Position numbers and translations under genes: made by a program
Shown here: positions 12,213 through 38,516 of the stretch, piece by piece
Layout: every line of letters begins with the position of its first letter
Numbering within the stretch: position 1 is the first letter of the stretch
Origin: Bacteroidetes bacterium HGW-Bacteroidetes-21
GTDB lineage: Bacteria; Bacteroidota; Bacteroidia; Bacteroidales; GWA2-32-17
Length of the DNA: 52,615 nt
Reading direction: 5' to 3'
Assembly (NCBI GenBank): GCA_002840935.1
Contig: PHDH01000002.1
Span: 1-52,615, forward strand
Notes under the pieces: model-generated
Seen by the model: the letters and a program-made list of their open reading frames with translations, nothing else
Told to the model about the DNA's origin: nothing
The model's database searches: none

Positions 12213-15200
12213 CTATTTTGCCCAAATGCCAAAATCATTCTCAATATTTTCTTGTCGCATGGTAGGTTTTTGTTTGCCTCCGGTGAGTTTTTGCACGTTT
12301 TCGAGGATGTATTTTTGCAGTTCAGACACGGTAATCTGATGGTCTTTGTTCAGGTCGGCAAGTCCGGACAATAGCCCTTCGCGAAGCGAATAGGTAAATA
12401 CGCCATTTTTCCATTGTTCTCCCTCGAAAGCAAACTCGCCTCCCCCTGCCGAGGAGATCACCACAGCGCCCGTTCCTTTGCGAAGATCAGCGAAAAGCTC
12501 CTTCATAAGCTCAAACGAATTATTATAGCTGAGCGTTGTGTTAGACTGATAACCTCTGGGTTTCACGCCTCTGAATATGACATCTTTTTCGGTCGTTGTT
12601 TGTGCTACTATTTGCGTTTCTGCATCTTTATCCACTTCTCCGGAATGGCAGGCGTCGATGAGTAAAAGCTTTTCGCGTGCCGGGATGGAATCGAGTAGTC
12701 TGTCCAGTTCTTCGTATTTCAGACCGCCTTCTGAAGGCTTATTGAAATTTATGTTGTAAGTAGCCAGGTAATAATCAAGGTTCTCATCCAATAATCCATG
12801 CCCTGCATAAAAGACGAGTACTTTGTCGTCAACTTTTGTGTTGCTAAGTAATTCCTTTACTTTTTTAATATTTCCTATGGTTACATCTTTGTTAAGAATT
12901 ACGCGGGTAGTGATTTTCCCGTAGTTGTTCTTTTGGTTCTCAAAAAGCGAGATAACATCACTGGCATCCTTAGCGGCAAAAGAGAGATTCCACTCAGGAT
13001 CTGCGTATTCTGAAGCACCAATAGCAATGACATACAAATCCGGTTTTGCTTGTCCGGCACTGGTGCAGATGATTTCAACCGTTTCTCTCAGGCTTTCAAC
13101 CCCTTTTTCGTTCATGCATGAAACCCTGACTTTGTTTGTTCCTTGCGAAAGGGTCAGGGTTATTTCGCGGGAAAACTCTTTCAGGTTTTTATCGCGCAAC
13201 GAAAAACCTTGAGATCCGAAAACAGCAACGTCGTTTACCCAGACATTCATTCGGTCGAGATAATACTTGCTGTCTTTTGCCACGAGGGTGAATGTAAGTG
13301 ATGAATTTTCAGTAAGAACAGGAATTTTATCTGCTTCTGTAATCACTATTTCAGGAAGATGAAAATCGTTGGCAAACATTTCTTCTGTAAAACCACTTTT
13401 TTGTAGTCGTTTTGCATATGCCATATGTAGCGCTTTAACCATCTCTGGCGTGGCGCATCCAAGTCGTTCCATGACAATGTCGGGACGGTTGTATTGAAGA
13501 TCGAATTGTTCAAAGGGATAAAATTTTAGCCCGAATGTAAACCCAATTTCTTTTTTAGCATTTTTTGTTGAATAATAGAAATAATCGGGGGTCTTAATGA
13601 TAAAATCACTGTTGTTCATTGTAAATAAGGTGGCAATCTCTTTCCCGCTATTGATATCCCAAATTTTCATGGACCCATCTAGCGACGATGTGACTAACTG
13701 TTTTCCGCCAGTTATAAATGCTGCTCCAGTGAGAGAATCGCTGTGCCCCGTGTACTTACTTGTAATTTTTTGTTGCTCGATATCAAATTTGACCATGGAG
13801 TGGGTCTGATCCTGAAAAAGAAATGATTTTCCATCGGAAGCATAGAGTAAAGGTCCTTTTCCTGAAGTAATTACTTTAACAGAATCCCTTTTGTAGTCAA
13901 ATATAAGAATTTTATCTTTTTCATCAGCTATCAGCATAGTATCGTTAACAGGACTGAAGCAGAAAGATTTTATTTCGTATTGAAAATCAAATGTTTTAAT
14001 TGGTTTTGTCTGTTGTAAATCCCATATTTTTAATGAATTATATGAGTCGTAAAGAACCGTGTTTTGAGATAAAGTTTTTACTGCCAGATACATGCCCAGG
14101 ACAGGTACCAGAAGAGAAATCGCCATGTTTTTACTAAATTTTTTTGAAAGTGCAGGTGCTCCTGTCTTATAATCTCGTCCACTACAGGCAAAAATGGAAG
14201 AATTATAATTAAAACCGATGCAATCTATAGATTTGTAATGTGCGCCAATAACTTTTTCTTTCTTTAATTCTGCAGTGTTAATTAGATGGATGGGGAAAAT
14301 ACGGGGTGCGAAAAATCGATAAAGAATGCCTTTGTTGAATCCTTTTCCCCCTGAAGCATAATATTTTCGATTGGGTGAAACGGCTGATACATCTTGTGAT
14401 TCGAAATTTCCCCACAGGAATTTTCGGGCATAATCAAAGGAAGTTATAGTATTAAGAAAAACCGTGTACAAAGGTGCATTTGCGATAGCATTATACCACC
14501 TGGGATTATGATTTCCTTTAATCTTTGCTGTGGAGCCCGTTTTCATATTGGAAAAAGCAATACGATTATCACTGCCTGAGGAAACCAACATCGTATCGGA
14601 GACGAAATGCATTCCGGTGACTTTACCCTGATGCCCGGAAAAGCCCATAATAGAAATTTTGTTATCAAGGAAAATGGAACTAATAAAGTGATCGCTTCCT
14701 CCCAGGGCAATATAGCTGCCTTCGGGATTGACCGCCATTTGAACAATAGGATGGATGCCACTTTCGAGCTTGCGAACGATTTGATTATTGCTAATGTCAA
14801 TGACAACAACATCCCCCGACTTGTTTCCTGCAATTAGAATGTTTTTATGCAGTGGATGAAAAACCACTGAAGTATAAATATTGAGAGGATCTGCAAATAT
14901 TTGCAGAAAGGCTCCTGAGCTTTTCCATTTGTAAATATTTCCATCTTCATTTACAGCTGTTAGAATGGAATCGTTAGCATTTAAAGAGATACTAATGAAA
15001 TTCTTTTTTCTAAAATCGCCTGAACGAGTATAGGTGACTTTTTCTTTTATTGGATCGAAGCAAGATATTCTAGATGGAACACAGGATATAAATAGTTTTG
15101 CTTTTTCTATTTTATGGTAGATAATATTTGCTTTGCATGGGATAGTCATTTTCTCGGAGCCATCCCACGAGAGCATTTTTGTGTCAAAATAGGAAAAGAA

Positions 15201-15878
15201 ATTATAGCCCGATAATAAGGAAATGGCCCTTGCAGCAATAATTTCTGTCTCGTTGGATCCAAAAACAACCGAAACGCCAGCGGGTATTGGCTTGTATATT
15301 TGGGAAAACATGGACATCAATTTCCCTGTTTTTTTATAACTCTTTTTTATTCCGCTTTTTTTAAGGAGAGTCTCAAAATATTTAATACTATCAGCTGATG
15401 ACCACAGGGTAATATCCTTGTCGAAAACAATTTTTTCAGAAATTTTCCAACATCTAATAAAAGAAAAAATCCCCGTGGCTATTAGATGTGCATCGTTTTC
15501 ACTGATGTCAAAAGATAAAACGGGCTGTTTCATTTGAATGGATTCTTTGATACTCCCTTCCTCGATATTCCAGAACAGAATCTGACCATCATTGCCGGCA
15601 GAAATAAGTTGATTGTTATGGTGTAGAAACTGAATTGCATTAATCTTCTGGCTATGTCCTTTTAAAACTTTTAACTGCTTTCCCAACCTGAAATCCCAAA
15701 TGATAATAATGTTATCGGCACCAGCTGTAGCCAACAGGGTTCCATCTTGATTAAAAGCCATTGTAGTCACGGGAGCCGAGTGGCCCGTTTGCAACGTGAG
15801 TTCTGGGTTTTGTCCCCAAAGAATGGGAGTAGCCAGGACAAACAACAAAAGCAATAACTGTTTTTTTATCATTGCCAT
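12213..15878 (-). CDS. Exported WD40-repeat protein with C-terminal caspase-like (peptidase C14) domain
   Basis: Signal peptide; WD40 repeats (GHSAPVTTMAF...IIIWD); catalytic dyad FYAGHG and IDACHSG; W.NGVFTY and GKQKP. Confidence 0.9.
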   Translation of the reverse strand: MAMIKKQLLLLLFVLATPILWGQNPELTLQTGHSAPVTTMAFNQDGTLLATAGADNIIIIWDFRLGKQLKVLKGHSQKINAIQFLHHNNQLISAGNDGQILFWNIEEGSIKESIQMKQPVLSFDISENDAHLIATGIFSFIRCWKISEKIVFDKDITLWSSADSIKYFETLLKKSGIKKSYKKTGKLMSMFSQIYKPIPAGVSVVFGSNETEIIAARAISLLSGYNFFSYFDTKMLSWDGSEKMTIPCKANIIYHKIEKAKLFISCVPSRISCFDPIKEKVTYTRSGDFRKKNFISISLNANDSILTAVNEDGNIYKWKSSGAFLQIFADPLNIYTSVVFHPLHKNILIAGNKSGDVVVIDISNNQIVRKLESGIHPIVQMAVNPEGSYIALGGSDHFISSIFLDNKISIMGFSGHQGKVTGMHFVSDTMLVSSGSDNRIAFSNMKTGSTAKIKGNHNPRWYNAIANAPLYTVFLNTITSFDYARKFLWGNFESQDVSAVSPNRKYYASGGKGFNKGILYRFFAPRIFPIHLINTAELKKEKVIGAHYKSIDCIGFNYNSSIFACSGRDYKTGAPALSKKFSKNMAISLLVPVLGMYLAVKTLSQNTVLYDSYNSLKIWDLQQTKPIKTFDFQYEIKSFCFSPVNDTMLIADEKDKILIFDYKRDSVKVITSGKGPLLYASDGKSFLFQDQTHSMVKFDIEQQKITSKYTGHSDSLTGAAFITGGKQLVTSSLDGSMKIWDINSGKEIATLFTMNNSDFIIKTPDYFYYSTKNAKKEIGFTFGLKFYPFEQFDLQYNRPDIVMERLGCATPEMVKALHMAYAKRLQKSGFTEEMFANDFHLPEIVITEADKIPVLTENSSLTFTLVAKDSKYYLDRMNVWVNDVAVFGSQGFSLRDKNLKEFSREITLTLSQGTNKVRVSCMNEKGVESLRETVEIICTSAGQAKPDLYVIAIGASEYADPEWNLSFAAKDASDVISLFENQKNNYGKITTRVILNKDVTIGNIKKVKELLSNTKVDDKVLVFYAGHGLLDENLDYYLATYNINFNKPSEGGLKYEELDRLLDSIPAREKLLLIDACHSGEVDKDAETQIVAQTTTEKDVIFRGVKPRGYQSNTTLSYNNSFELMKELFADLRKGTGAVVISSAGGGEFAFEGEQWKNGVFTYSLREGLLSGLADLNKDHQITVSELQKYILENVQKLTGGKQKPTMRQENIENDFGIWAK

Positions 15879-15881
15879 GGC

Positions 15882-16973
15882 TTATTTTATAAAAAAGTTA
15901 AAAGGTACTTCCACGGTTTCTTGCTCAAAATCAGTATTCAGCATAATTCTTAAGCCGGAAGTATAAGAGCAGCCATTATAAAATTCGGGACTTGGACTTT
16001 CAAGTGTCATTACGACTTCAAAGCAATCAAACCCACCTTGCATCATTTCTGGTATTTTTCCTGAAATCTGAAGGAAGTCCATGGGTAATTCCCCGTCATC
16101 GTAATTATAATCAAAGCTGTAGGGTGGTTTGTAATAGATGCCTTGGGTACCGGCATTAAGTCTCTCCAGAAAACCATGAATATTATTATTGCTCCATGTA
16201 TAAGGTTCTGTAAATTCTAAAAAATGACAAATGACTTTACTTTGAAGCGCTTTATTCATCAGGCTATATAGATTGATTTCCTGCCAGTAATTTTTTCGTC
16301 TCGTCATAAAGATAAACAAATGCTGGTTTTCGTAAGTCGATTTTGCGTTGAGGTAATCCAGCATAGAGTCTATGGCTGTTAGCAGCCGAAGTGTGTCGAA
16401 TGCTTCGGTATTACCTGTATGAAAAAATTGGGAAATAATCTGGTCTGTTTCGCCAGGATTAGAGATAAATCCGTTACTCAAAAGTTCAATAGGCATTTGT
16501 TTATCGCCTACTTTTGCCAGAAGTATCTCATTGGAAGGTAGTGAACCATGAATAATTTTTCGAACGGTTGGTTCCATTCTATCAAAAATGCCATTCATGT
16601 TGATGGTGACGTCTAGTCCATTACTCATTAATATAGCGGCCGAATAATTCCCTTTCTCCGGAGTCGTAATACGCTTTAAACTATCAATCGCACCTGAGTA
16701 GTCGCCTGACAGTGAGATTCTCCCGTTTATATCGAAACGAACCAGACCGTCGGCATTGGATTTGTCCAGTACAAAGAAGCGAACTTTAACAACTGACTTT
16801 AAATTTGTATAACTCAGTACTTCGTTGGATAAAATCCCTACTGAATAATAGTTTTTAATGATTTTCTCTTCCTCTTTTTTGCAAGATGGCAGGATTATCA
16901 GTACTGAAAAAAGACAGACAGCTAAAGCTTTGAAACTGAAAGAAAATACTATGTGGTTGTTTCTTTTTTTCAT
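15882..16973 (-). CDS. Lipoprotein, possible degenerate VWA-like domain
   Basis: Lipobox ILPS-CKKEEE; alpha/beta pattern (YSAAILMS..., LLTAIDSMLDYL, HLFIFMT) reminiscent of VWA but without a DxSxS motif. Confidence 0.6.
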   Translation of the reverse strand: MKKRNNHIVFSFSFKALAVCLFSVLIILPSCKKEEEKIIKNYYSVGILSNEVLSYTNLKSVVKVRFFVLDKSNADGLVRFDINGRISLSGDYSGAIDSLKRITTPEKGNYSAAILMSNGLDVTINMNGIFDRMEPTVRKIIHGSLPSNEILLAKVGDKQMPIELLSNGFISNPGETDQIISQFFHTGNTEAFDTLRLLTAIDSMLDYLNAKSTYENQHLFIFMTRRKNYWQEINLYSLMNKALQSKVICHFLEFTEPYTWSNNNIHGFLERLNAGTQGIYYKPPYSFDYNYDDGELPMDFLQISGKIPEMMQGGFDCFEVVMTLESPSPEFYNGCSYTSGLRIMLNTDFEQETVEVPFNFFIK

Positions 16974-17707
16974 GAGCTGGGGTTTGACTTTTTAATCCAA
17001 GGGTTGAATAATGTAAAACTATAGCAAACTCTTATCATTATAAGGTCCTTATAATTTGCATTGTACAAAAAAGTTTCTTTGTTAAGTTCTGTAATATTTT
17101 TTTCAAACCGGATATCAAGTGCATTACTATAGTACGAAAAACCTATTCCTCCTATGATGTCCATGTAATAATTGTTGAATTTCTTCATTAGCTCATCTTT
17201 TCTCGTCGCATCGGCATAATAATAATAATTCTGATTTGAGTTTTGATCCGTTACGAGAGTTATTGAAGAGAAAAATACGGTTCTGAATCGACCAATACGG
17301 TTATTTATTCCTCCAAAGAATCTGATTTTGACAAGGCTGCCAGGATTAATTGTAAGCCCACAAAAAAGAGGAACTTCCAGCGCCGAATAAGTAAAGTATT
17401 TATCTCGGGAGGTCTTCCAGTCAGGAATGTTTTTCCTGAATTTATTTTCAAAAAAATTAACTTCGCCCTGAAAATATATGTGGGGCATTCTATATCTTAC
17501 AAAAACCCCTGTAGACAATCCTGTGAGATAAGTGTGATACTTATTATCACCGGCAGTAAGTGAGGTATAATCTTTAAAAATGATGTATTCTTTATCAAAA
17601 GTAAGTTTGCTGAATAATAAAGGGGAGTATACAATACCGGTTTCCATTTTCTGGGCAAAAAGGCTTGCATAAATGCACATGAATCCTATGATGAGCAACT
17701 TTCTCAT
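16970..17707 (-). CDS. Putative outer-membrane beta-barrel protein
   Basis: Signal peptide; amphipathic strands (GVFVRY, YFQGEVNF, LEVPLFCG, IRFFGG, LDIRFE); ATGA overlaps with both neighbours. Confidence 0.65.
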   Translation of the reverse strand: MRKLLIIGFMCIYASLFAQKMETGIVYSPLLFSKLTFDKEYIIFKDYTSLTAGDNKYHTYLTGLSTGVFVRYRMPHIYFQGEVNFFENKFRKNIPDWKTSRDKYFTYSALEVPLFCGLTINPGSLVKIRFFGGINNRIGRFRTVFFSSITLVTDQNSNQNYYYYADATRKDELMKKFNNYYMDIIGGIGFSYYSNALDIRFEKNITELNKETFLYNANYKDLIMIRVCYSFTLFNPWIKKSNPSS

Positions 17708-18360
17708 TCGTAGCTTATCCTTTTTATCTGATTCGGTGGAGTGCTAACAAGTATAGGGAAAGCTACACCGATTTTTATTTCATAAAAACTGGAGATCTGA
17801 AAACTATCGTATTCCATTTTGTCTGCACGGTTGCATCTGGATAATGTACAGGTTATGGGTGTATTTCCCAGTTTGAAAATCGTATTAATGCCAGTTCTTA
17901 GAGTAAAGACGCTTGCTGAAATATCATAGGCAGAGCCATATATTCTAATATAAGGATCTTTATTATATGTGGCATTGTGACTGAATATTGTGATTCCAAA
18001 TTCAGGAGCAATTTTCAACTTCTCTGATTTGCTTCGGATTACATCGTAAGAAATTCCAAAGTCGAAGGTATTGCCTCCGCCCCGCGCATTTACTTTAACG
18101 GACTTATAATCAAATTCATCAAAACTATAGTTTCTCACGGTTCCATAATAATTTTTTGGTACATAATAATTCATTCCAAAGTATATACCGAATCTATTTA
18201 AAAGGAAAGTATATTGCCAGGAAGCGCCATAAAAATAGAAGGGTTTATTATCAAAGGCAGGAAGGTAAATCTGACTACTGCCTATAGACAAGCGATATGA
18301 CTGGGAAAAAGAAGTCAAAGACAAGAATGCAAAGGCGAAAAACAGTAGTAGTTTTCTCAT
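17704..18360 (-). CDS. Putative outer-membrane beta-barrel protein
   Basis: Start at ATG 18360 (MRKLLLFF, ATGA overlap with upstream stop); signal peptide; aromatic alternating strands ending YEIKIGVAF. Confidence 0.6.
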   Translation of the reverse strand: MRKLLLFFAFAFLSLTSFSQSYRLSIGSSQIYLPAFDNKPFYFYGASWQYTFLLNRFGIYFGMNYYVPKNYYGTVRNYSFDEFDYKSVKVNARGGGNTFDFGISYDVIRSKSEKLKIAPEFGITIFSHNATYNKDPYIRIYGSAYDISASVFTLRTGINTIFKLGNTPITCTLSRCNRADKMEYDSFQISSFYEIKIGVAFPILVSTPPNQIKRISYE

Positions 18361-18824
18361 AAACCATCTGGATTTAATCTGGTCGTCCAATGGCTTCTGT
18401 CGAAATAATCATAGACGTAAAAATAGTACCCGGTCCATGAGTTGAGAATTGCTTCATCGTCTTTTACGCACAAATTTTTAATAGTTAACGTATAATATAC
18501 ATCTTCTTCTCTCTGCTCGAATTCCCCCATATATTCGTGGATATGCAAGTCGGTATAATCGAATTCATCGTATAATAATTCTGATGTCCAGTCTTTGATT
18601 TGATATTTGACTACATGGAATAAATCGTATTTTATTTCGACATATTCGTTTGCTTGATAGAATTTTCCATCAACAGGTATGCTACCGGATGCGTCAAAGA
18701 TTTGTAGGTTTTTAATCGTGGTATCTGCTGGGGGGATGACACGCAAAAAACATAAGCCGTTTTCTTTTTTGCAGGAGAAGAAAACCGTCAGTAAAACTAT
18801 TATTACTAACCCTTTTTGCCGCAT
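18357..18824 (-). CDS. Hypothetical lipoprotein
   Basis: Lipobox VFFS-CKKE; first gene of an overlapping five-gene run. Confidence 0.7.
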   Translation of the reverse strand: MRQKGLVIIVLLTVFFSCKKENGLCFLRVIPPADTTIKNLQIFDASGSIPVDGKFYQANEYVEIKYDLFHVVKYQIKDWTSELLYDEFDYTDLHIHEYMGEFEQREEDVYYTLTIKNLCVKDDEAILNSWTGYYFYVYDYFDRSHWTTRLNPDGL

Positions 18825-18846
18825 TATTTGCTTAGAAATCTCCTTA

Positions 18847-18854
18847 CAAATGTA
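18847..18854 (-). promoter_or_regulatory. Bacteroidota -7 promoter element for the 18824-12213 operon
   Basis: TACATTTG on the minus strand, 22 nt upstream of ATG 18824. Confidence 0.6.
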
Positions 18855-18970
18855 AGAAAATTAATGATACTCGTTTTTTGAAAGCGTAATTTTTGCAAGA
18901 ATTGAGAATTTACTTTTTATGGGAAAAAATGAGTTTTGTATGTGTCAGTTAATGAGAGCAAAACGACAAA

Positions 18971-21160
18971 TTAGTAGACATTCATTATTTCGCGGTATTT
19001 TGGTAAAGTCCATGTTTCATCATCTACAAGTAGCTCTATTTTGTCGGCTTCATATCTTATCAGCGCAAAATATGGAAATACTAATTTACAATAAGCAGAA
19101 GCCTTTTCTTCTGCTGAATCGAGGGAATTTGCTTTTTTTCGGGCTTCGGTCATGGCAGTTACGTTGTCTTTGATGGACGAAATTCTTTCGGCAATTTCTT
19201 CAATTATTTGCATCTGCATTTTGGCCAGTTTACGGAATTCTTTGTCTGGATATATCTCTTTTAATCCTCTTACATTTTCTATAAGCAAATGCTGGTAGTT
19301 GAGTGCCACTGGAATGATATGATTAAGAGCGATGTCGCCTAATACACGTGACTCAATCTGTATGATTTTATAATATTTTTCCAGTTTAATCTCGTAACGG
19401 GCTTCCAACTCTCTTTCAGTTAAAATATTATTGTTTTTGAAAAGCTTAATTGTATTGGCATTGATATATGTTTTTAGTGCTTCGGGGGCATTGTTAATAT
19501 TTGATAATCCACGTTTTTTAGCTTCTGAGATCCAGTCGCATGAGTACCCGTTGCCATCGAAAATTCTTTGTTTGGAAGCTTTATAGGTTTCTTTCAGTAC
19601 GATATACATAGCTTCGTCTTTTTCGAAACCTTTATTTAAGAGTTTGTCGACATCCTTTTTGAACTGAACTAGTTGACCGGCAACAGCAGTGTTGAGGGCT
19701 ATCATAGCCGCAGCGCAATTCTCTGACGAACCCACCGATCTGAACTCAAATTTATTGCCGGTGAAAGCGAAAGGTGAAGTCCGGTTTCTGTCGGTATTGT
19801 CGATGAGGATGGGGGGGATTTTGATAATATTGAGTTTGAGTGCTGTTTTTTGCTCCGGTGTAAATTTGTTACTACTTACTTTTTTGCAAAAATCTTCGAG
19901 CATGTTGGTTAGATAGCTTCCCGCAAAGACAGACATGATGGCCGGAGGGGCTTCGTTGGCTCCCAGTCGGTGATCGTTGGAGGCAGAGGCGATGGAACCC
20001 CGTAACAGGTCAGCATGATCGTGAAAGGCTTTGATGGTATTTATGAAAATGGTTAAGAACAGTAGGTTGGATTTTGGATTTTTACCAGGAGATAAGAGAT
20101 TGCGCCCTGTGTCAGTGGCCAGTGACCAGTTGTTGTGTTTGCCAGAACCATTTACTCCGGCAAAAGGCTTTTCGTGAAAGAGTACTTTAAAGTGATGTTT
20201 CTTTGCAGATCTTTGCATAAGGAACATCATGAGCTGATTGTGGTCGTTTGCCAGATTTGCCTCCTCGTACTGAGCCGCTAATTCGTACTGATTGGGGGCG
20301 ACTTCGTTATGGCGGGTCCTGACGGGTATTCCTAATCTCCAGGCATCGTGCTCATAATCGTCCATAAAACTACGAATGCGATCGGGGATAGACCCAAAGT
20401 AATGATCTTCGAGTTGCTGGCCTTTGGCTGCTTCGTGACCAAACAGTGTGCGTCCGGTGAGTGCTAGATCGGGGCGGGCATTATATAAAGCTTCATCAAT
20501 GAGAAAGTATTCTTGTTCCCATCCCAGGGTAACGTATACTCGGTTAATATTTTTATCAATGTATTGACAGATATCAGTCGCCGCTTTGTCAATAGCAGAA
20601 AGTGATTTGATGAGTGGGACTTTAAAATCGAGGGCTTCGCCGGTGTACGAAATAAAGATGGTGGGAATACATAAAGTATTGTCAATAATAAAAGCAGGTG
20701 AAGAAGGGTCCCAGGCAGAGTATCCTCTGGCTTCGAATGTGTTTCGGATGCCCCCGCTGGGAAAGCTCGATGCATCGGGTTCCTGTTGAACCAGATTTTC
20801 ACCGGCCATGATTTCTATGGGCTGTCCTGCTTCGTTAAGTTGCAGGAAAGTGTCGTGTTTTTCGGCAGTACCTCCTGTGAGAGGTTGAAACCAATGGGTG
20901 AAATGTGTCGCACCATGAGATACAGCCCAGTTTTTCATGCCCGAAGCTACCATGTCAGCAATGTCTCTGTCTATCTGCTTGCCTTGTGAAACGGAGTTTT
21001 CAATCATTTCTACTACATGAAGTGGAAGAAATTCTTTCATTCTGCTCATTGTAAATACATGGGTAGAGAAAATGGCGGATGGGTTTTCCTTTTTTGGAGC
21101 CTGAAAGGTATTGGAACGACGTCCAATAATTTCTAATGCAAGTTTTCTGAATGATGACAT
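18971..21160 (-). CDS. glnA: Glutamine synthetase type III
   Basis: THFTHWFQPLTG.TAEKHD, EPDASSFPSGGIRNTFEARGY, HEKPFAGVNGSGKHNNWS and DRNRTSPFAFTGNKFEFR. ATG 21160 gives 729 aa and lies just downstream of a TACATTTG box. Confidence 0.96.
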   Translation of the reverse strand: MSSFRKLALEIIGRRSNTFQAPKKENPSAIFSTHVFTMSRMKEFLPLHVVEMIENSVSQGKQIDRDIADMVASGMKNWAVSHGATHFTHWFQPLTGGTAEKHDTFLQLNEAGQPIEIMAGENLVQQEPDASSFPSGGIRNTFEARGYSAWDPSSPAFIIDNTLCIPTIFISYTGEALDFKVPLIKSLSAIDKAATDICQYIDKNINRVYVTLGWEQEYFLIDEALYNARPDLALTGRTLFGHEAAKGQQLEDHYFGSIPDRIRSFMDDYEHDAWRLGIPVRTRHNEVAPNQYELAAQYEEANLANDHNQLMMFLMQRSAKKHHFKVLFHEKPFAGVNGSGKHNNWSLATDTGRNLLSPGKNPKSNLLFLTIFINTIKAFHDHADLLRGSIASASNDHRLGANEAPPAIMSVFAGSYLTNMLEDFCKKVSSNKFTPEQKTALKLNIIKIPPILIDNTDRNRTSPFAFTGNKFEFRSVGSSENCAAAMIALNTAVAGQLVQFKKDVDKLLNKGFEKDEAMYIVLKETYKASKQRIFDGNGYSCDWISEAKKRGLSNINNAPEALKTYINANTIKLFKNNNILTERELEARYEIKLEKYYKIIQIESRVLGDIALNHIIPVALNYQHLLIENVRGLKEIYPDKEFRKLAKMQMQIIEEIAERISSIKDNVTAMTEARKKANSLDSAEEKASAYCKLVFPYFALIRYEADKIELLVDDETWTLPKYREIMNVY

Positions 21161-26600: not shown

Positions 26601-26910
26601 CAAACCAGCCTCCTGTGGCGAGGTATTTATTGTCGGGCGAAAGAGCCATAGAATAGACCATCCCGTTGCTTCCGGGGCCTATTTCGCCGAGTATTTCCCT
26701 GACCATTTCTCCTGACTCAACGTCCCAAACTTTTATTGTTTTATCAAAGCTCCCAGTAATAATTTGTTTTTTGTCGGAAGTTACAAGTAGAGCCCTTATT
26801 TGCCCTTTATGTCCCGCCGGATTTATCACCAACAAGGGTCTGCTTTCCTGGGCAAAAATCCCTGTATATGTCAAAAAAGTTATAAATGTACCTATAAGTA
26901 ACTTGTTCAT
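23698..26910 (-). CDS. Exported WD40-repeat protein with C-terminal caspase-like (peptidase C14) domain, paralog of 12213-15878
   Basis: Signal peptide; WD40 repeats (GHKGQIRAL...TGSFDKTIKVWD); FVAGHG and MDSCHSG dyad; shares YPFEQFDLxYNRPDI and DxHLPEI with the other copy. Confidence 0.9.
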   Translation of the reverse strand: MNKLLIGTFITFLTYTGIFAQESRPLLVINPAGHKGQIRALLVTSDKKQIITGSFDKTIKVWDVESGEMVREILGEIGPGSNGMVYSMALSPDNKYLATGGWFGKHDESEVIGDIRIYDFKSGKLLFLLKGHRNVIHALAFTPDGKKLLSGDAENELFLWDVEGQKIIQKYNHHDKNLGLGQDDDIMDIAVHDNQFITTDQYGRIKWWNINKKDSLYCDHYYEQIAGDGVAWSPDGKYTVAVVDTFMTIYDETYKPIAEATGDMEFIFAAFSPDSKKILFGCTGRGSKHTVSVLSLETEGWTPYADFEDVDNSVIAGAFIDNETFAISGGSKDEVIVIRLKGMNEKPEVIQRMTGKGNIMFSAALSGSKIAFADQWTENFGYSKFNKQFDLISKTIESPDMSIAWKRPVKTNGNMSIERYRRGDALNGGLYIYKNKAIHDSIPLEYWNGSEHRSFSFVNNSIISGASYGTLKAYNYQGVEISQFIGHIGDIEGLSISDDGKKLITASNDRTIKIWPLNELGATVNPKSPESVTEFCKRMKIYPTFNKVFKIIGVSAESQIATKEAWLKVINTMVENDYRCSSFKNHFSEIYSNEIYPVVSVFIDENGDWIIWNEDGYFTSSKKGSKYVGYHVNQGKEKEAKYYPFEQFDLKYNRPDIILKDLSMVNQDVINAYYLAYQKRLKRMGMDETQLSDDIHLPEILIKNQNYDETKQEVKIQLSAIDSKYELDRLNIFVNDVPVYGTQGLSIKDKSTKNFNTELNIPLCPGKNKIQVSALNTKGAESLKETFNILNKNITKPDLYLVSIGVSKYKNEKFNLNYAAKDAGDVAEFFKKSDQYNKVFIKTLTNEQATKNAILDLKNNFLSQAQTKDVVIIFVAGHGVLDTDLNYFFGTYDMDFNNPISGGIAYEDLELLLDGIKPIKKLFLMDSCHSGELDLDEYSIADNTKTETSEVKFRNAGAVTTVAKNGFGLSQSAQLASDLFADLRRGTGTTIISSAGGAEFAMEGKAWNNGLFTYCLLSGLKEKSSDLNKDGIILLSEIENYVYKKVEELSGGKQRPTTRRENLEFDFRIW

Positions 26911-27246: not shown

Positions 27247-30012
27247 ATGATAAAACGAATACTATTATTTTTTGTTCTTTTAGTAAATTCAGTGTTACTG
27301 TTTGCTCAAACGGGTGATGAGTATTTTACAAAAAAAGAATATGCCAGTGCAATTGCAAGATATGAACAGGAAATTAAATCAAAACCTGAAAAGTATTTCA
27401 ATCTGGCTAAAGCGTATTTTGCAATTAAAGAATTTGATAAATCAATTGCAGCACTTGAAAATTATAAAAAATTGTACACTTCAGCAGATATTGCTCTAGC
27501 TGATAAATGGATAACTCTACTGAAGAGAGACGATGAGTATATTGAAGTAAATAACTCTGGAGAATTGTTAAACTCGCCTCAATCTGATTATTTTCCGTAT
27601 GTATCAAAAGATGGTAATACATTGTATTTTACGACAAAAGACCGTGCTAATGGATTTGGTGGAGAAGATATCTGGTTTTGCGAAAGAAATTCGGATGGCA
27701 CTTGGGGAAAAGCCCAGAATATCAATACACAACTTAATACAAAGAGTCATGAGTGTATGATGTCTATGTCGGGAGATGGCAACGTTTCTATCCTATTTGG
27801 TAATTATGAAGGTTCATTCGGTGGTGGCGATTTATTCTATTCTGTTAAAACGGAAAAGGGATGGACTATGCCTTGTAACCTGGGAGGAACAATCAATTCG
27901 AAAAACTGGCAGTCGCAAGCAAGTTTAGCTGCTGATGGAAAAACTTTATTGTTTATCAGTGATGTTGAAGGCGGTTTTGGGGGTGGGGCTGATATTTATG
28001 TGTCAGTCTTATCAGAAGAAGGTTGGAGCAAACCGGTGAATTTGGGCCCTAAGATTAATACTCCTGGGTTCGAAGGCTGGCCTTTCCTTGCCGCTGACGG
28101 CAAAACTTTGTATTTTTTCAGTGATGGTCATTTTGGGTTTGGCGGTCATGATATCTTTATGGCTAAAAAAATCGGTGAATCCTGGACAGATTGGAGCGAA
28201 CCTGTGAATATGGGTAAATACATTAATACATTAGATGATGATAAGTATTTATCTATTCCATCATCCGGAATCAAGGCATATACAGTTAGAACAAATCAGC
28301 CCGAAGGATATGGTGAGTCGGATATTTATGAATTTATCATTCCTCCCAGTATGCGCCCCGAAATTGTAATTAATGTGTATGGTTATGTTACAGATGAGAA
28401 TAAAGCTCCCGTTGGAGCCGTTGTTCGTTTTTATGACTCAGTAACAGGTGTTGAGCAGGCATCGGCTAGTAGTAATTTTACGGATGGCTTATATCGGGTG
28501 TCTTTACCTCCATTAAAAAAATACAATGTTGTCATCGATATGAAAGGATATCTTTATCTGACCGATGTAATTGATCTTACTGATTTGTCGAAGTTTACTA
28601 AGGTCGAATATATGAATGAAAGATTAGCAGAGCAACTTCCTGAAATTAAGGCAATGCAAGAAAAACTGACAGCACTTAATAATCAGCTATTCTCAGTGAT
28701 TAACGAAAACTCTACAAATATTGATAATGCTTTTAAAAATTATGATGATATTATTAAAGCATATAGGACAAATCTTAATAGTTTAGACCTCTCTATTAAA
28801 AAATCAAAACTCGCATGGATGTCTAAAGAAGATAAAATTATGGATGTCCGTAAAGATTTTCAATTGCAAACAATTCGTGTAGGGGCAACTTTCGAACTAA
28901 AAAATATTTTCTTCGATTCCGGTAAGGCTACCCTTCGTGAAGAATCAAAAACTGAGCTTGATAAACTGGTGGATATAATGAAGAAAAGCGAAATCGTTAT
29001 TGAGCTAGGAGGACATACCGATAGCATTGGTACAGATGAGTCAAATATTAAACTTTCGCAAGAGAGGGTAAATTCTGTTATGCAGTATTTGATTGATAAT
29101 CAAATTAAACCTGAACGTATCAAAGCAGTGGGATATGGCGAGTCTCAACCTTTAGCCTCTAATAGTACAGACGAAGGACGTCAGAAAAATCGTCGTGTAG
29201 AAGTTAAAATTCTTCAGTTACAACTTGCAAGAGAAGGACAGGATGTGTATACGGATCAGCCCAAAGAAGTGAAGCCTGAAGAAAAATTTGATTTTCTTTC
29301 AACACTGCAAAATGCGGCACAAAAAGGAGGATTGCCTTCTAACAGCCCATGCTCTAACGAAGTTAAATATCTGACGGATATTGTGCCCACAACAACTACC
29401 ACAGATCCTCAGTATACTACACCAACACGCACACCCCGTTCAACATATAGCGAAGTCGAAAGGGATAATTTTGTTTACAAAACATTTAACCCTTATCTTA
29501 AAAACTTAAGTCTTGCTGAGCAAAATGTTAATGGAGCAAATATTTATGAAGGATCTTCTTTAGGAGTTGGAGTGAATTTTGTTAGCGAGAAACTTAGGGA
29601 AACAACCTTTGAGTACTATTTTGTTAATGATGATAGTATTAAGTGGATGGGGTATTTTAACTTTAATTATAACTGGCAGTTTTTTAAATCTCTCGATTTG
29701 CCTTTATTGACAATTTTTGGTGTTAATACTCATTTCTGGCAGCATACTTCTAATATTAATGGTTCAGACGGTGCAATTATTCTAAATATGCCTATAGGAT
29801 TCCGTTATAATATTGAAATTTCTGATGACTTGTATGCGGCTCCTATGATAAAGTATAGTTTTGGTACTTCATTAAAAGATATAAATGATGTAAGTTCAAA
29901 ATACTTTACAGTTGGGGTAGATGCACGGTATAAATTTATACAAGGAGGATTAAATTATAATAGTGGCGAACTAATTAAATATCTAGGATTTAGAATCGGA
30001 TTTGCATTCTGA
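27247..30012 (+). CDS. OmpA-family protein: TPR + PD40 propeller + carboxypeptidase-regulatory-like + OmpA_C, with extra C-terminal putative beta-barrel
   Basis: Signal peptide; TPR; PD40 repeats (P.LAADGKTLYF.S..H.GFGG.DI); OmpA motifs NIFFDSGK, IELGGHTDSIG, NIKLSQER and GRQKNRRVE; ends YLGFRIGFAF. TATTTTTG box at 27210-27217. Confidence 0.88.
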   Translation: MIKRILLFFVLLVNSVLLFAQTGDEYFTKKEYASAIARYEQEIKSKPEKYFNLAKAYFAIKEFDKSIAALENYKKLYTSADIALADKWITLLKRDDEYIEVNNSGELLNSPQSDYFPYVSKDGNTLYFTTKDRANGFGGEDIWFCERNSDGTWGKAQNINTQLNTKSHECMMSMSGDGNVSILFGNYEGSFGGGDLFYSVKTEKGWTMPCNLGGTINSKNWQSQASLAADGKTLLFISDVEGGFGGGADIYVSVLSEEGWSKPVNLGPKINTPGFEGWPFLAADGKTLYFFSDGHFGFGGHDIFMAKKIGESWTDWSEPVNMGKYINTLDDDKYLSIPSSGIKAYTVRTNQPEGYGESDIYEFIIPPSMRPEIVINVYGYVTDENKAPVGAVVRFYDSVTGVEQASASSNFTDGLYRVSLPPLKKYNVVIDMKGYLYLTDVIDLTDLSKFTKVEYMNERLAEQLPEIKAMQEKLTALNNQLFSVINENSTNIDNAFKNYDDIIKAYRTNLNSLDLSIKKSKLAWMSKEDKIMDVRKDFQLQTIRVGATFELKNIFFDSGKATLREESKTELDKLVDIMKKSEIVIELGGHTDSIGTDESNIKLSQERVNSVMQYLIDNQIKPERIKAVGYGESQPLASNSTDEGRQKNRRVEVKILQLQLAREGQDVYTDQPKEVKPEEKFDFLSTLQNAAQKGGLPSNSPCSNEVKYLTDIVPTTTTTDPQYTTPTRTPRSTYSEVERDNFVYKTFNPYLKNLSLAEQNVNGANIYEGSSLGVGVNFVSEKLRETTFEYYFVNDDSIKWMGYFNFNYNWQFFKSLDLPLLTIFGVNTHFWQHTSNINGSDGAIILNMPIGFRYNIEISDDLYAAPMIKYSFGTSLKDINDVSSKYFTVGVDARYKFIQGGLNYNSGELIKYLGFRIGFAF

Positions 30013-32429: not shown

Positions 32430-32486
32430 AAAAAGAATTTTGCTTAAAACGGTGCAAGAAAGAGAAAGTTACAGTAAAAAACAGAA

Positions 32487-34428: not shown

Positions 34429-34454
34429 TAATTCAATTGTGAATCAATAAGAAG

Positions 34455-37400
34455 ATGAAATTGATATTTACTTCATTGGTACTAATACTTTTCTCGATTG
34501 CTGTTTGTGCTCAGACACAGGAAGAAACGCTGAACAGTTTTTATCAGGAGTATCAGGCGCAGAATTTTACGTCGGCCGTCACCGCAGGTAATCAGTATTT
34601 GCAGAAATCCACTATTAAGGATACAACCTATTTAGACGTTCTGCGATATCTGGCATTTAGCTATTACAACTTGCAGGATTATCCTATGGCGGTCGAGAAA
34701 TACGAACAATGTCAAAAACTTTGCGCGGATCTTAAAGGTAAGGAGAACTACGAATATATCATGGCAACTTTCAATCTGGCAGTCAATTATACTTATGTAA
34801 AAAAGTATTCGTTGGCTTTTCCGTTGATGGAAGAAGTCATGGCTTTTATAGAGAAAGATCAGACGAAACACAGCATGGATTACATTAATACGGGCATACA
34901 GCAGGCTAATATTTACAATCTTGCCGGAAGTTTCGATTTGGCAGCCTCTGTGTACGAAGATATTTTTTCGGTCGTTAAAAGCGAATACACGGAGACCGAT
35001 TCTCTGTATCAGCAAATGGTGAATATTATTGCCCCTTTTTACCTTCAGAATGGTCGTTACGATAAAGCTGAACCTTTTTATGTCAGCGCTGTTAGTATTA
35101 TGGAAAATGTGTATGGGAAAAAGCACGTTTATTATTTGCTGACATTAAACAGTCTGGGCGAGTTTTATCTCTATGCCGGGATGTATGCGAAAATGGAAAA
35201 AGTCTTTGCTGAATCGGTAACTATATGCCTTGATATGTATGGAAAAAACTCAGCCGATTATGCAACTGCACTCAACAATCTGGCTGTTTCTTATGAAAAG
35301 CAAGGAAAAAACAAGGAGGCTGAGGAATTATATCTTCAGTGTCTGAAAATAAAAGCCAAAGTGTATAAAAAAGAGAGCGACTATTATGCTTTGTCGTTAT
35401 CCAATCTTGCAGTACTGTACGATAATATGGGTCGTAATGAGGAAGCCGGAAAACTTCTCGAAGAAGCCATTCGTATTTATTCAAAAGTATACGACGAATC
35501 CAATCCGAATTATGCTGTTGCGCTGAGTAATATGGCTTCTGTCTATTCGGGATCGGGGAAGTATCTTCGGGCAATGGAGTTATTGCTAAAAGCGGGAGAG
35601 ATACAACAAAAAAACTATGGCGAAAAATATGTTGGGTATATTAATACACTTCATAATCTGGCTACCATTCATGAAGAATTGGGTGATTACAATATGGCAG
35701 AATCTATCTATGAAAAAGTTGCAGCGTTGAAAAAAGAAGTTCTGGGAGCAAGTCATACCGATTATGCCACAACTTTAGTCAGTTTGGCTCATATAAAGAC
35801 AGTTAGGGGAAAATATAGTGAGGCAGAAAAATTACTGACTGAAGCTTTGGCAATTCAGCGACAAGCTGTAGGCGAGAATCATGCTTCTTATCTCACTTGT
35901 CTCAACAGTCTTGCCGGATTGTACAGTTACATGGGAAATTATCAGTTGTCGGGCGAGTTGTATCAGCAATGTAAGATAGGTTTTGAGTTGACTTTTGGCG
36001 ATATGCATCCCGAGTATGCTACTTTTTTGAATAATATGGGACTCTATTATTTTGAGTCGGGTCAGTATAATGAAGCAGAGAATGCGCTAAAAAAGTCGCT
36101 CGACATTCAACAGAAAGCCTATGGAAAAGATCATCCGGATAATGTGAATATGCTTACCAATCTGGCTAATGTAATGATGAAAATAGGTAACAATAGAATG
36201 GCCGAAGAATATCTGATGGAATCGAATCGCATAGTTCAGGAAAAATTGGGACTTGAGCATCCAAGTTATGTTACATCGATTCTATCTTTGGGTGTTTTTA
36301 ATTTCGAGACAGGGAATTACGAAAAAGCCGAAAATTTTTATCTGGAAGCATTAGAGAAATCGAAAGCACTGAAAGGTGAAGTAACTGAAGAATATGCAAC
36401 CATACTTAGTAATCTGGGAGCTCTTTATCTGGCAAAAATAATGGTCGAGGAAAATGAAACAAAAGCAGTTGTCTTGGCAAAAACGGCCGAGTCCTATTTA
36501 TTGAGTTCGCTTCGCATTGATAGCCTTTTATATGGTAGCGATCATCCCGATTATATTTCGCATTTGAATAATCTGGCAGAGTTTTACAGAAATACCAATC
36601 AGTTCGAACAAGCAGAAAAACTTTATCTCAAAGTTATAGAAGCTGAACGAAAGAAATTCGGCGAAAGTTTTCCGCCGTTAGCCGTGATATATCACAATCT
36701 GGGGCTGCTTTACAATGGGGCTGGCATGAACGAAAAAGCGGAGGATTTTTGCAAAAAGTCGTTGGCACTTAAAAAAGAGGTATATGGCGAAAACTCCACG
36801 GCTTGCTCTGATGTATTGTCGAGTCTGGCTTATGTTTACGAAAGTTCAGGAAACTTTAAGGATGCCGAAGCATGTTACAAAAAGGCGCTGAAACTAAACT
36901 ATGAAATGGTACGACAGAACTTTGCTTTCTTATCCGAGGAAGAAAAAACCAATTACCTCACAACATTGGCTCATTATAACGATATGTTTGCCGCTTTTGT
37001 TTTAAAAAACAAAGCACTTAATCCCTCTGCTACCAGTGATTTGTATAGTAATTTACTGATCAATAAAGGAATACTTTTACGTTCTTCGGGGGAGATGAAA
37101 AACAAGGTGTTTAAAAGTAATGATAAGGCACTTATACAAAAATATAATGAATGGATAGGCTTCAGGCAGCAGTTGGCAAAGCTATATACGATGCCCGAAA
37201 AGGATCGTTTTGAATCAGTGTCTGAAGTAGAAGAAAAAGCAAACCGGCTTGAAAAAGAACTAGTAGCAGTTACTTCCGATCCTAACGACGAAAACGAATC
37301 GTTCTATCGCGATGGGCAAACAGTTCAGAAATCATTAAAGGAAAAAGAAGCAGCCATTGAGTTTGGTCATTTTAAGCGATTAGAAAAAGATAACACTTAC

Positions 37401-38516
37401 AGCGATAACTATTACGCCTTAATTGTTCGGTCCGATCAGCCTTATCCATTGATGCTAGAATTATTTAATGTCGAGGCTTTTGCTAAAGTATTTGGCACTT
37501 ACAAGGGAAATAATTTGAATTACATTTCTGGTCTGTATTTTACTCCAGATCTGTATCGGTTAATATGGCAGCTGCTGGAGCCTTACCTGAACGGTATTTT
37601 TACGTTGTATATCGCTCCGGATGGATTATTGCATAAGGTAGCATTTGCTTCGGTAAAAACGCCAAAAAACCTGTATTTGTCAGATATGTATTCGCTGAAT
37701 ATTGTTTCGTCTACTTTCCAGGTCTGCAATAAAAATGAAGGTAATGTAATGGCAGGTAATCCCGATGCGGCCATTTTTGGAGGAGCGCTATACAGTAGCG
37801 GTGAAGCGCCTGCTGAAGGCTGGAAATATCTAGAAGGAACGTTGACGGAAGCACAGCAAATACAAAAAATATGTAGCAGCCAGAAAGTGCAAAATAAAGT
37901 CTTTACTGGTGAGCAAGCGAGTGAGGAGAACATAAAGGCGTTAGTCGGGAAAAGTGCGCCGACAATACTGCACATTGCAACCCATGGTTTTTTCTATCCA
38001 GATCCCAATGAAACCAACGTGAAAGATGAAAACGAAGCCCCTGTTCTGGCCGAAGTTACATTTCGTGGCGGAACGGGTTCTGAGGCCATTTTATCTTTCC
38101 TCAATAATCCTAATCCGCTTTTGCGTTCAGGTCTTGCATTGTCAGGTGCAAATAGTGTTTGGACTTCCACCTCCGGGTTGGCTGAAGATGGTATTTTAAC
38201 GGCTTACGAAGTATCAAATATTAATCTGTCGAAAGTTCGGCTAGTTGTTCTCTCAGCCTGCGAAACCGGTCTGGGCGATATCAAGGGAAGTGAGGGGGTT
38301 TACGGTCTGCAACGTGCTTTTAAAATGGCGGGAGTTAAATACATCGTAATGAGTTTATGGCAGGTGCCGGACAAAGAAACCGTCGAGTTTATGGAAACAT
38401 TTTACACCAAACTTTTAAAATCAAAAGACATTCGAAAATCGTTTTCGGATACACAAAAAGAAATGCGGAAGAAATATGATCCGTATTATTGGGCTGCCTT
38501 TGTGTTGGTAGAGTAG
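34455..38516 (+). CDS. Exported TPR-repeat protein with C-terminal CHAT protease domain
   Basis: Signal peptide; many 42-aa TPRs (HPDY...LNNLA); CHAT motifs APDGLLH, LHIATHGFF, DGILTAYEV, LSACETGLG, SLWQVPD and PYYWAAFVL. Confidence 0.93.
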   Translation: MKLIFTSLVLILFSIAVCAQTQEETLNSFYQEYQAQNFTSAVTAGNQYLQKSTIKDTTYLDVLRYLAFSYYNLQDYPMAVEKYEQCQKLCADLKGKENYEYIMATFNLAVNYTYVKKYSLAFPLMEEVMAFIEKDQTKHSMDYINTGIQQANIYNLAGSFDLAASVYEDIFSVVKSEYTETDSLYQQMVNIIAPFYLQNGRYDKAEPFYVSAVSIMENVYGKKHVYYLLTLNSLGEFYLYAGMYAKMEKVFAESVTICLDMYGKNSADYATALNNLAVSYEKQGKNKEAEELYLQCLKIKAKVYKKESDYYALSLSNLAVLYDNMGRNEEAGKLLEEAIRIYSKVYDESNPNYAVALSNMASVYSGSGKYLRAMELLLKAGEIQQKNYGEKYVGYINTLHNLATIHEELGDYNMAESIYEKVAALKKEVLGASHTDYATTLVSLAHIKTVRGKYSEAEKLLTEALAIQRQAVGENHASYLTCLNSLAGLYSYMGNYQLSGELYQQCKIGFELTFGDMHPEYATFLNNMGLYYFESGQYNEAENALKKSLDIQQKAYGKDHPDNVNMLTNLANVMMKIGNNRMAEEYLMESNRIVQEKLGLEHPSYVTSILSLGVFNFETGNYEKAENFYLEALEKSKALKGEVTEEYATILSNLGALYLAKIMVEENETKAVVLAKTAESYLLSSLRIDSLLYGSDHPDYISHLNNLAEFYRNTNQFEQAEKLYLKVIEAERKKFGESFPPLAVIYHNLGLLYNGAGMNEKAEDFCKKSLALKKEVYGENSTACSDVLSSLAYVYESSGNFKDAEACYKKALKLNYEMVRQNFAFLSEEEKTNYLTTLAHYNDMFAAFVLKNKALNPSATSDLYSNLLINKGILLRSSGEMKNKVFKSNDKALIQKYNEWIGFRQQLAKLYTMPEKDRFESVSEVEEKANRLEKELVAVTSDPNDENESFYRDGQTVQKSLKEKEAAIEFGHFKRLEKDNTYSDNYYALIVRSDQPYPLMLELFNVEAFAKVFGTYKGNNLNYISGLYFTPDLYRLIWQLLEPYLNGIFTLYIAPDGLLHKVAFASVKTPKNLYLSDMYSLNIVSSTFQVCNKNEGNVMAGNPDAAIFGGALYSSGEAPAEGWKYLEGTLTEAQQIQKICSSQKVQNKVFTGEQASEENIKALVGKSAPTILHIATHGFFYPDPNETNVKDENEAPVLAEVTFRGGTGSEAILSFLNNPNPLLRSGLALSGANSVWTSTSGLAEDGILTAYEVSNINLSKVRLVVLSACETGLGDIKGSEGVYGLQRAFKMAGVKYIVMSLWQVPDKETVEFMETFYTKLLKSKDIRKSFSDTQKEMRKKYDPYYWAAFVLVE

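Follow-up and report, generated by a model that had tools for sequence, protein, structure and literature searches.

Why should three apparently exported proteases of two different families carry almost the same six residues beside their active sites? The question is raised by a 52,615-nucleotide stretch of DNA (the window; contig PHDH01000002.1, positions 1 to 52,615) from Bacteroidetes bacterium HGW-Bacteroidetes-21 (assembly GCA_002840935.1), a genome of 3.9 Mb in 326 contigs that is 88% complete. Two genes of the window encode proteins in which WD40 arrays precede a caspase-fold Peptidase_C14 domain (C14 proteins 1 and 2), and a third encodes a protein in which about 800 residues of tetratricopeptide repeats (TPRs) precede a CHAT protease domain. 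A sequence-only reading of this DNA had noticed that all three contain a hexamer of the form [DE]-V-x-F-R-[GN] and had proposed that a common arginine cleavage site underlies a proteolytic cascade outside the cytoplasm. The motif likeness across the two families exceeds chance, and we tentatively favor the idea that the site is an Arg-specific activation-cleavage site common to two linked periplasmic proteases of clan CD.

A conserved arginine site beside two active sites

C14 protein 1 (1221 amino acids; 12213-15878, minus strand) is defined by its open reading frame (ORF), its translation, and matches to Pfam WD40 families and to PF00656 (residues 951-1215; C14 domain at 12234-13028, minus). 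It carries DVIFRG at residues 1099-1104 (12567-12584, minus) in loop L4, the linker after the catalytic Cys, and its dyad codons, also on the minus strand, are those of His1027 (12798-12800) and Cys1077 (12648-12650). C14 protein 2 (1070 amino acids; 23698-26910, minus), defined by the same kinds of evidence, has its C14 domain at 23710-24501 and carries EVKFRN at residues 950-955 (24046-24063) in the linker after Cys928 (codon 24127-24129), all on the minus strand. The motif starts 22 residues past the catalytic Cys in both proteins, and the conserved Arg lies 26 residues past it. The TPR-CHAT protein (1353 amino acids; 34455-38516, plus strand; ORF, translation, and Pfam) has its CHAT domain at 37551-38510 and bears EVTFRG at residues 1200-1205 (38052-38069) in a long loop between its catalytic residues His1177 (37983-37985) and Cys1269 (38259-38261), all on the plus strand. 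The translations match the three previously reported hexamers exactly, in both position and strand.

The three proteins are ordinary members of the Pfam families C14 and CHAT. PF00656 scores 49.4 and 63.1 bits on the C14 proteins (cutoff, 21.4), with matches that span positions 5-231 and 7-232 of the 233-position profile, and the CHAT protein scores 203.7 bits with PF12770 (cutoff, 24) and 363.5 bits with TPR_12. The two C14 genes are the sole C14 matches of the genome, and the CHAT gene is one of four. The window is Bacteroidota-like: the nearest relatives of its C14 proteins come from uncultured Bacteroidales and from metagenome-assembled genomes of Bacteroidota, and a type IX secretion system (T9SS) sorting domain lies nearby.

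Conservation was read from alignments of the best 120 relatives of each protease region, drawn from at least 7989 CHAT-region matches and 2963 C14-region matches (E<=0.001). The CHAT set holds 120 rows that are 49-60% identical to the query, and the C14 set holds 121 rows that are 45-72% identical. In protease subsite notation, P5 is most often Glu (48) or Asp (23) in the CHAT set and Asp (40), Asn (22), or Glu (18) in the C14 set; P4 is Val (57), Ile (30), or Leu (27) in the former and Val (70) or Ile (49) in the latter. P3 is free in both, with 3.1 bits of entropy in the CHAT set. Phe predominates at P2 (113 CHAT rows; 87 C14 rows, with Ser in another 19), and P1 is Arg in 119/120 CHAT and 119/121 C14 rows. 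P1' is Gly in 114 CHAT rows and Gly (53), Ala (25), or Ser (20) in the C14 rows. The adjoining loop columns have about 3 bits of entropy and many gaps in both alignments. The [DE]-[VIL]-x-F-R-[GAS] stretch thus stands out as a conserved island within otherwise variable acidic loops. What is conserved is not the literal hexamer but a site from P4 to P1' in which P3 is free, with the core [VIL]-x-F-R-[GAS]: the strict form [DE]-V-x-F-R-[GN] occurs in only 36/119 CHAT and 9/121 C14 homologs, while [VIL]xFR[GS] is present in 109/119 CHAT homologs, [VIL]x[FS]R in 105/121 C14 homologs, and [VIL]xxR followed by a small residue in 118/121 C14 homologs. The expectation that the motif would stand out against a variable loop was therefore right for this core in both families and wrong for the hexamer as first written.

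The catalytic His and Cys, which had been said to be kept in all three proteins, are invariant in 120/120 CHAT and 121/121 C14 homologs, and so neither family consists of pseudo-enzymes. Also invariant in the C14 alignment, which was read without structural superposition on an S1 pocket, are an Asp two residues before the Cys and several other Glu or Asp residues. A V-K-S-R-G variant of the site occurs in 19/121 C14 homologs. MALT1 prefers a hydrophobic residue, any residue, Ser, and Arg, followed by Gly, much like this variant.

In the CHAT family, the motif marks one clade. The other three CHAT paralogs of the genome lack it, so it is not a general CHAT feature. A quick IQ-TREE search on 103 CHAT domains with the loop removed placed the rows with a Phe-Arg-Gly (FRG) loop in one group of 54 rows, of which 46 are FRG, with a Shimodaira-Hasegawa-like approximate likelihood ratio of 97; the non-FRG members of that clade keep the Arg and the small residue. 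This association of the FRG loop with a single CHAT clade is newly observed here. In a phylum-wide sample of 120 other genomes, seven had a CHAT match (E<=1e-20), and none of those seven loops contained FRG.

How unusual is the likeness between the families? The strict pattern occurs six times in the 870,162 residues of the genome's ORFs of at least 300 amino acids, and three of the six occurrences are the sites described here. Six-column profiles of each family, built from homologs in other organisms with the window's own sequences left out, were also ranked against all 1,036,730 hexamers in ORFs of at least 200 amino acids. The CHAT profile ranked DVIFRG 4th and EVKFRN 101st, and the C14 profile ranked EVTFRG 2nd. 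Applied to full-length C14 proteins (median, 1119 amino acids), the CHAT profile found its best match at the linker site in 80/121 proteins and placed that site among the top three in 110/121. The C14 profile, applied to CHAT proteins, found its best match at the loop site in 106/120 and placed it among the top three in 114/120. Further substrates were sought with a genome-wide scan for a broad form of the pattern, which gave 20 matches in ORFs of at least 200 amino acids; three were the known sites, and the rest were scattered and unrelated.

AlphaFold2 models are consistent with the earlier statement that the motifs occupy different loops of one caspase fold. The motif falls between the His strand and the Cys strand in the CHAT model and between the Cys strand and the next helix in the C14 model, as the His and Cys positions also indicate. 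The CHAT-domain model has a mean predicted local distance difference test (pLDDT) score of 86.0, which drops below 50 for model residues 191-208, with the motif inside. The C14 model, built from a 69-row subset of the 121-row alignment, has a mean pLDDT of 84.6, with values below 50 for residues 303-317; its motif blocks score about 50-59 and are drawn as a short strand. Given this low confidence, both motif loops look exposed. Foldseek searches with the CHAT model found Csx29 (2.8e-10, the best match), the periplasmic TPR-CHAT region of DdvA (2.3e-8), SAVED-CHAT (8.6e-6), and separase (1.9e-5); searches with the C14 model found MALT1 (2.0e-10, the best match), GSU0716 (1.3e-9), and metacaspases (1e-8 to 1e-6). 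A PDB sequence search with a single C14 domain gave no match at E<=0.01, and a profile search gave mostly WD40 matches and no caspase alignment.

The N-termini of the three window proteins each contain a basic and hydrophobic stretch, then a small-x-small pattern, and then Gln, in line with the signal peptides that had been ascribed to them. The predicted signal peptide of C14 protein 1 comprises residues 1-22 (...ILWG, then QNPE; 15813-15878, minus), as judged by its hydrophobic N-terminus and the small-x-small-Gln heuristic; those of C14 protein 2 and the TPR-CHAT protein lie at 26851-26910 (minus) and 34455-34511 (plus). Small-x-small followed by Gln corresponds to the Q-rule described for signal peptidase I substrates of Bacteroidetes (PMC5837995). 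Among homologs that start with Met, the signal-peptide pattern is present in 101/115 CHAT and 86/111 C14 proteins, as scored by a crude heuristic other than SignalP that also flags 399/1509 control ORFs. The three proteins have no lipobox and, by Pfam, no T9SS tail. Because each has a signal-peptide-like N-terminus with neither lipobox nor T9SS tail, the simplest guess from the sequences is that all three would be soluble periplasmic proteins.

Genomic association of the two families

In an unbiased order-level sample of 200 genomes, all from the order of the window's genome, CHAT (E<=1e-30) was found in 34, C14 (E<=1e-20) in 23, and both in 14 (Fisher, 3.7e-7, which, like the Fisher and Poisson figures that follow, is an overstatement, as related genomes are not independent). 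Strict FRG-type CHAT proteins occur in 6/200 of these genomes, and five of the six carry the C14 family versus 23/200 overall (Fisher, 7e-5). Counted by taxonomic family, 4/5 families with FRG-type CHAT have C14 versus 22/148 families (0.0017).

The genes also cluster, with no more than 10 kb between them in several genomes. A second set comprised 40 genomes chosen for having C14, and its C14 loci span 602,305 bases. Four of these loci contain at least one CHAT gene versus 0.27 expected from each genome's CHAT count (Poisson, 1.8e-4). For instance, locus L008 has on one strand a TonB-like receptor, a C14 gene (GDVKFRGF), an 88-bp gap, and an FRG-type CHAT gene (NDVVFRGG), while locus L035, from Ignavibacteriaceae, has two CHAT genes 12 bp apart and then, after 79 bp, a C14 gene (GEVLFRN). 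The C14/CHAT runs in L008 and L035 are apparent operons. Genome G355, from the same family as the window's genome, has the four-gene envelope set described below, a C14 gene, and then a convergent FRG-type CHAT gene 136 bp away; genome G333 has three FRG-type CHAT genes within 9 kb of a C14 gene; and in locus L002 the CHAT/C14 spacing is 7.5 kb, as in the window.

Finally, the two sites co-vary at P2. Among the order-level genomes whose C14 linker could be read, 6/6 with FRG-type CHAT have [VIL]xFR versus 2/14 others (7e-4), and in the 40-genome set the figures are 9/10 versus 12/30 (0.007). Co-occurrence, clustering, and P2 co-variation, which are observed here for the first time, give indirect support to a functional link between the C14 and CHAT families.

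Other aspects of these loci deserve description in their own right. An exported 269-amino-acid protein (40109-40918, plus) has no Pfam or NCBIfam family and is single-copy in the genome; its homologs occur at 5/79 C14 loci in several families (L022, L025, L035, L046, and L071) and beside the CHAT ortholog in G355 (L188). It may be a third partner. In L035, a CHASE2 membrane sensor (11357-12598, plus) directly follows the CHAT-CHAT-C14 run and is itself followed by a homolog of the 269-amino-acid protein. Locus L017 of Winogradskyella thalassocola (6182-20775) is an island of clan CD genes that encode a WD40-C14 protein (1712 amino acids), a C14-TPR protein (996), a TPR-CHAT protein without Phe-Arg (1031), and a further C14 protein (659). 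TPR-CHAT genes often stand in tandem arrays, with three in a row in G059 (contig C2: L081, L091, and L088) and two in G333 (contig C19, L187), and G121 has 17 matches; such arrays suggest rapid paralog turnover.

Candidate readings of the site

At the site, P4 is aliphatic, P3 is unconstrained, P2 is Phe or Ser, P1 is almost always Arg, and P1' is small; on a flexible loop by the active site, these features together make the pattern of a cleavage site. Co-occurrence, clustering, and P2 co-variation lead us to regard the two families as a putative linked periplasmic pair with one specificity. We infer that [DE]-[VIL]-x-F-R-[GAS] would be cut after its Arg. The two families would then be secreted clan CD zymogens, each presenting the island (P5 to P1'), on a flexible loop next to the active site, for recognition and cutting by a protease. 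For the WD40-C14 proteins, the island in loop L4 would most likely be the enzyme's own maturation site, and one TPR-CHAT clade would have gained a longer His-Cys loop bearing the same site. In the simplest version, an Arg-specific C14 enzyme would cut itself and also the CHAT loop, relieving autoinhibition of the CHAT protease and allowing it to act on a presumed downstream target. We favor C14 as the putative cutter because its Arg is family-wide while the CHAT loop is derived in one clade, because C14 proteins of the Phe-Arg (FR) type often occur without FRG-type CHAT while FRG-type CHAT rarely occurs without the C14 family, and because the C14 fold sits among Arg-specific enzymes. Such a cascade would not be obligatory, as the C14 family often occurs without FRG-type CHAT, and the sensor roles that the sequence-only reading gave to the WD40 and TPR arrays are conjectural. 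The reverse order, in which CHAT would cut the caspase homolog, has by analogy a cytoplasmic precedent in the SAVED-CHAT/PCaspase system discussed below.

Several observations weigh against this reading. In the window itself, the three protease genes form no operon, and the C14 protein 2 and CHAT genes occupy opposite strands, separated by 7.5 kb that include housekeeping genes; between the window's protease genes are those for a PorE-like OmpA protein, an outer-membrane barrel, a penicillin-binding protein, chorismate synthase, and glutamine synthetase. Short-loop CHAT relatives have [FY]-[RQKH]-x-S-[DE]-N-P at the same spot, with the Arg not fixed outside the FRG clade, and judging from the sequences, the Phe-Arg pair may in part be inherited structure older than the insertion. 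In the phylum-wide sample of 120 genomes, C14 was found in seven, CHAT (E<=1e-20) in seven, and both in just one. One genome (G193) has FRG-type CHAT and other PF00656 proteins, and the C14 family was not found in it with the query used; another (G128) has FRG-type CHAT together with C14 linkers of the Thr-Arg or Ala-Arg type. FR-type C14 proteins without FRG-type CHAT are common, as the 12/30 and 2/14 genomes above attest. In addition to the inflated Fisher and Poisson figures and the export heuristic's hits among control ORFs, the loop counts must be read as those of the best CHAT hits only, both in the 40-genome set and among the lower-ranked matches of the order-level sample. Also, MALT1, the closest structure to the C14 model, is uncut in L4 and needs no cleavage there (PMC4357240).

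The main rival, doubtful in its own right, holds that each family processes only itself, so that the consensus would reflect convergent subsite preferences of two Arg-directed clan CD enzymes and the genomic association would reflect lifestyle or a clustering of envelope proteases, with no cross-talk. The Arg of the C14 linker is family-wide and present in many genomes that lack FRG-type CHAT, orthocaspases and C11 enzymes normally process themselves (PMC5756287, PMC4850288), and separase, which has the CHAT fold, also cuts after Arg (cited in PMC11506125). The neighborhoods are mixed, including a TonB-like receptor, CHASE2, thioredoxin, and sensor kinases, and gene islands of clan CD enzymes do exist, such as L017 with its three C14 genes and one CHAT gene. 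What self-processing alone leaves unexplained is that Phe at P2 of the C14 linkers tracks FRG-type CHAT in both genome sets (6/6 versus 2/14; 9/10 versus 12/30), that the CHAT site is the proteome's second-best match to the C14 linker profile, and that some pairs are tight and on the same strand, with gaps of 12 to 88 bp. We consider it unlikely that the island is never cut and serves instead as a pseudo-substrate latch or docking motif, its Arg sitting in an acidic pocket or bound to a common partner (e.g., a WD40/TPR array) for reversible regulation. In MALT1 and TbMCA2, a loop residue that stays uncut is known to be autoinhibitory, and the former needs no L4 cut, as already mentioned (PMC4357240); the C14 model draws a short strand over VIFR; and short-loop CHATs keep an aromatic residue, not always with Arg, at the equivalent place. 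Nevertheless, protease sites show just such conservation from P4 to P1', with a free P3 and a small residue after the Arg; both loops have low confidence in the models; and effector caspases and C11 enzymes provide precedents for a cut at exactly these two loop positions.

Maturation of both families at a common site by a third Arg-specific envelope protease would account for the genomes that have FRG-type CHAT and either no C14 family found (G193) or another P2 residue (G128), and Bacteroidota have other Arg-specific clan CD enzymes, with RgpB among the weaker fold matches. This is nonetheless improbable, given that no candidate is conserved alongside, the sole recurring neighbors being the 269-amino-acid exported protein and the four-gene envelope set, and that the genome-wide motif scan reveals no wider substrate set. 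Least credible is a chance resemblance between conserved loop features that have nothing to do with each other. The motif was found post hoc and comprises just six positions, of which one is free; yet the ranks of 2, 4, and 101 among the hexamers were obtained with the window's own sequences excluded, both sites flank an active site, and the genomic association is independent evidence.

Precedents come from several known enzymes. In meta- and orthocaspases, cleavage follows Arg or Lys (PMC4357240, PMC5756287), MALT1 and metacaspases cut after basic residues (PMC4357240), and the orthocaspase MaOC1 autoprocesses (PMC5756287). The window's C14 proteins resemble effector caspases, type II metacaspases, and MaOC1 in their caspase fold and His-Cys dyad and in having an L4 Arg where those enzymes mature by a cut (PMC4357240, PMC5756287), and they differ in being exported and in having N-terminal WD40 arrays and an unnamed module of about 160 residues before the protease domain. 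This module (residues 780-940 of protein 1; 13060-13541, minus), which lies between the WD40 arrays and the C14 domain and is also present in protein 2, contains the sequence YPFEQFDLxYNRPDI..., is conserved without matching a Pfam family, and is confidently modeled by AlphaFold2 as helices followed by a beta sandwich. The invariant Asp two residues before the Cys of the C14 family corresponds in placement to the S1 residue Asp177 of the C11 peptidase PmC11 (PMC4850288).

For the CHAT loop, C11 peptidases offer the closest analogy. In PmC11, a cut at Lys147, which lies between His133 and Cys179, is required for activity; it unblocks the active site, relieving steric autoinhibition. In clostripain, the cuts fall at Arg181 and Arg190 (PMC4850288). 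C11 enzymes share with the CHAT protein membership in clan CD and a basic P1, which in the CHAT protein is that of the putative site, and the FRG loop lies at the same topological place as the C11 activation cut; its conservation and low pLDDT also fit. In contrast to the CHAT protein, they belong to a different family and have no TPRs, and by this analogy cleavage of the CHAT loop is predicted. C11 is absent among the fold matches listed for the CHAT model, and by Pfam the CHAT protein is not a C11 member.

The sequence-only reading had described CHAT systems as cytoplasmic, which is correct for the well-studied ones, whereas the periplasmic TPR-CHAT region of DdvA is a published exception (PMC11506125). 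DdvA resembles the window's protein in having an extracytoplasmic TPR-CHAT region, the one matched by the CHAT model at 2.3e-8. It is membrane anchored, with a cytoplasmic zinc anti-sigma domain, a partner sigma factor of the extracytoplasmic function (ECF) type, and three helices of the CHAT core missing, and its proposed autoproteolysis falls in the membrane linker, not in the His-Cys loop (PMC11506125). The window's CHAT protein, by contrast, has only a predicted 19-residue cleavable signal peptide before its TPR array. A protein of the DdvA anti-sigma kind was ruled out, there being no anti-sigma domain, membrane anchor, or nearby sigma gene; no sigma-70 family was found among the 20 neighboring ORFs scanned.

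In type III-B CRISPR-Cas of Haliangium ochraceum, SAVED-CHAT cuts and activates PCaspase (preprint 10.1101/2023.06.23.546230, in excerpt). The likeness to the present families is that CHAT-fold and caspase-fold protease genes occur together, being adjacent in L008, L035, and G355 and clustered in G333, L002, and L017. The differences are that SAVED-CHAT/PCaspase is cytoplasmic, CRISPR linked, and switched by cyclic oligoadenylate through SAVED, while the window proteins have signal peptides and WD40 or TPR arrays in place of SAVED, and that the direction may be reversed, from C14 to CHAT. Membership in this CRISPR cascade was ruled out by the absence of a SAVED domain, the absence of Cas genes, and export; Pfam scans of the three proteins and of 20 neighboring ORFs detected neither a SAVED nor a Cas family. 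The excerpted preprint does not mention a loop motif common to its two proteases.

A broader proposal, which we put forward as doubtful, is that proteases of Bacteroidota and Ignavibacteriota form an extracytoplasmic relay with two tiers. A caspase homolog with WD40 repeats and Arg specificity would mature at [VI]-x-F-R, and one clade of TPR-CHAT proteases would have copied this site into a new His-Cys loop, so that the caspase homolog would switch the CHAT protease on. The relay would parallel, in the periplasm, the initiator and executioner caspases, and it would have evolved independently of the CRISPR-linked CHAT-to-caspase cascade and run in the opposite direction. A literature search that covered neither supplements nor subscription journals turned up neither the motif common to the two families nor an exported pairing of C14 with CHAT, and a text search of a prokaryotic metacaspase survey (PMC3501461) did not return the word "CHAT."

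Current understanding of bacterial caspase-like and CHAT proteases comes almost wholly from cytoplasmic antiphage systems. Both families considered here are exported, have no known function, and are of large size, the database clusters at E<=0.001 numbering at least 7989 for CHAT and 2963 for C14. The conserved, exposed Arg site predicts which bond would be cut, which residues to mutate, and a peptide substrate, V-x-F-R, and the genomic association names a candidate partner. Should the relay be real, the bacterial envelope would be a further place where caspase-like zymogen cascades operate, and one protease family would have evolved the activation site of another.

Neighboring genes and other features of the window

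Immediately upstream of C14 protein 1 lie four tightly packed genes (15882-18824, minus; ORFs with overlapping or abutting ends), two lipoprotein-like and two outer-membrane-barrel-like, none of which matched a Pfam or NCBIfam family. Together with the protein 1 gene, they probably form one operon. The same four genes precede a C14 gene in the same order in L002, L003, and L185.

Between C14 protein 2 and the CHAT gene, a 921-amino-acid PD40/CarboxypepD_reg/OmpA protein (27247-30012, plus) resembles PorE and CHU_0125-type OmpA proteins while scoring under both curated cutoffs, and it has many paralogs in the genome. At 6955-10319 (minus), adjacent genes pass the NCBIfam cutoffs for GatD (494 bits; cutoff, 310) and GatE (471 bits; cutoff, 456), the archaeal-type Glu-tRNA(Gln) amidotransferase subunits, which are unexpected in a Bacteroidota-like genome.

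Beyond the 269-amino-acid protein, a sensor gene (40960-44142, plus) encodes Reg_prop, Y_Y_Y, and SpoIIE (PP2C) domains. SpoIIE-domain genes are greatly expanded in this genome, whose 3.9 Mb contain about 33 of them (40 matches). Sensor genes of this type recur beside CHAT and C14 genes and were set aside as background, since the genome has so many of them and they occur at only 6/79 C14 loci; the exception to this background is conserved synteny with the same-family genome G355.

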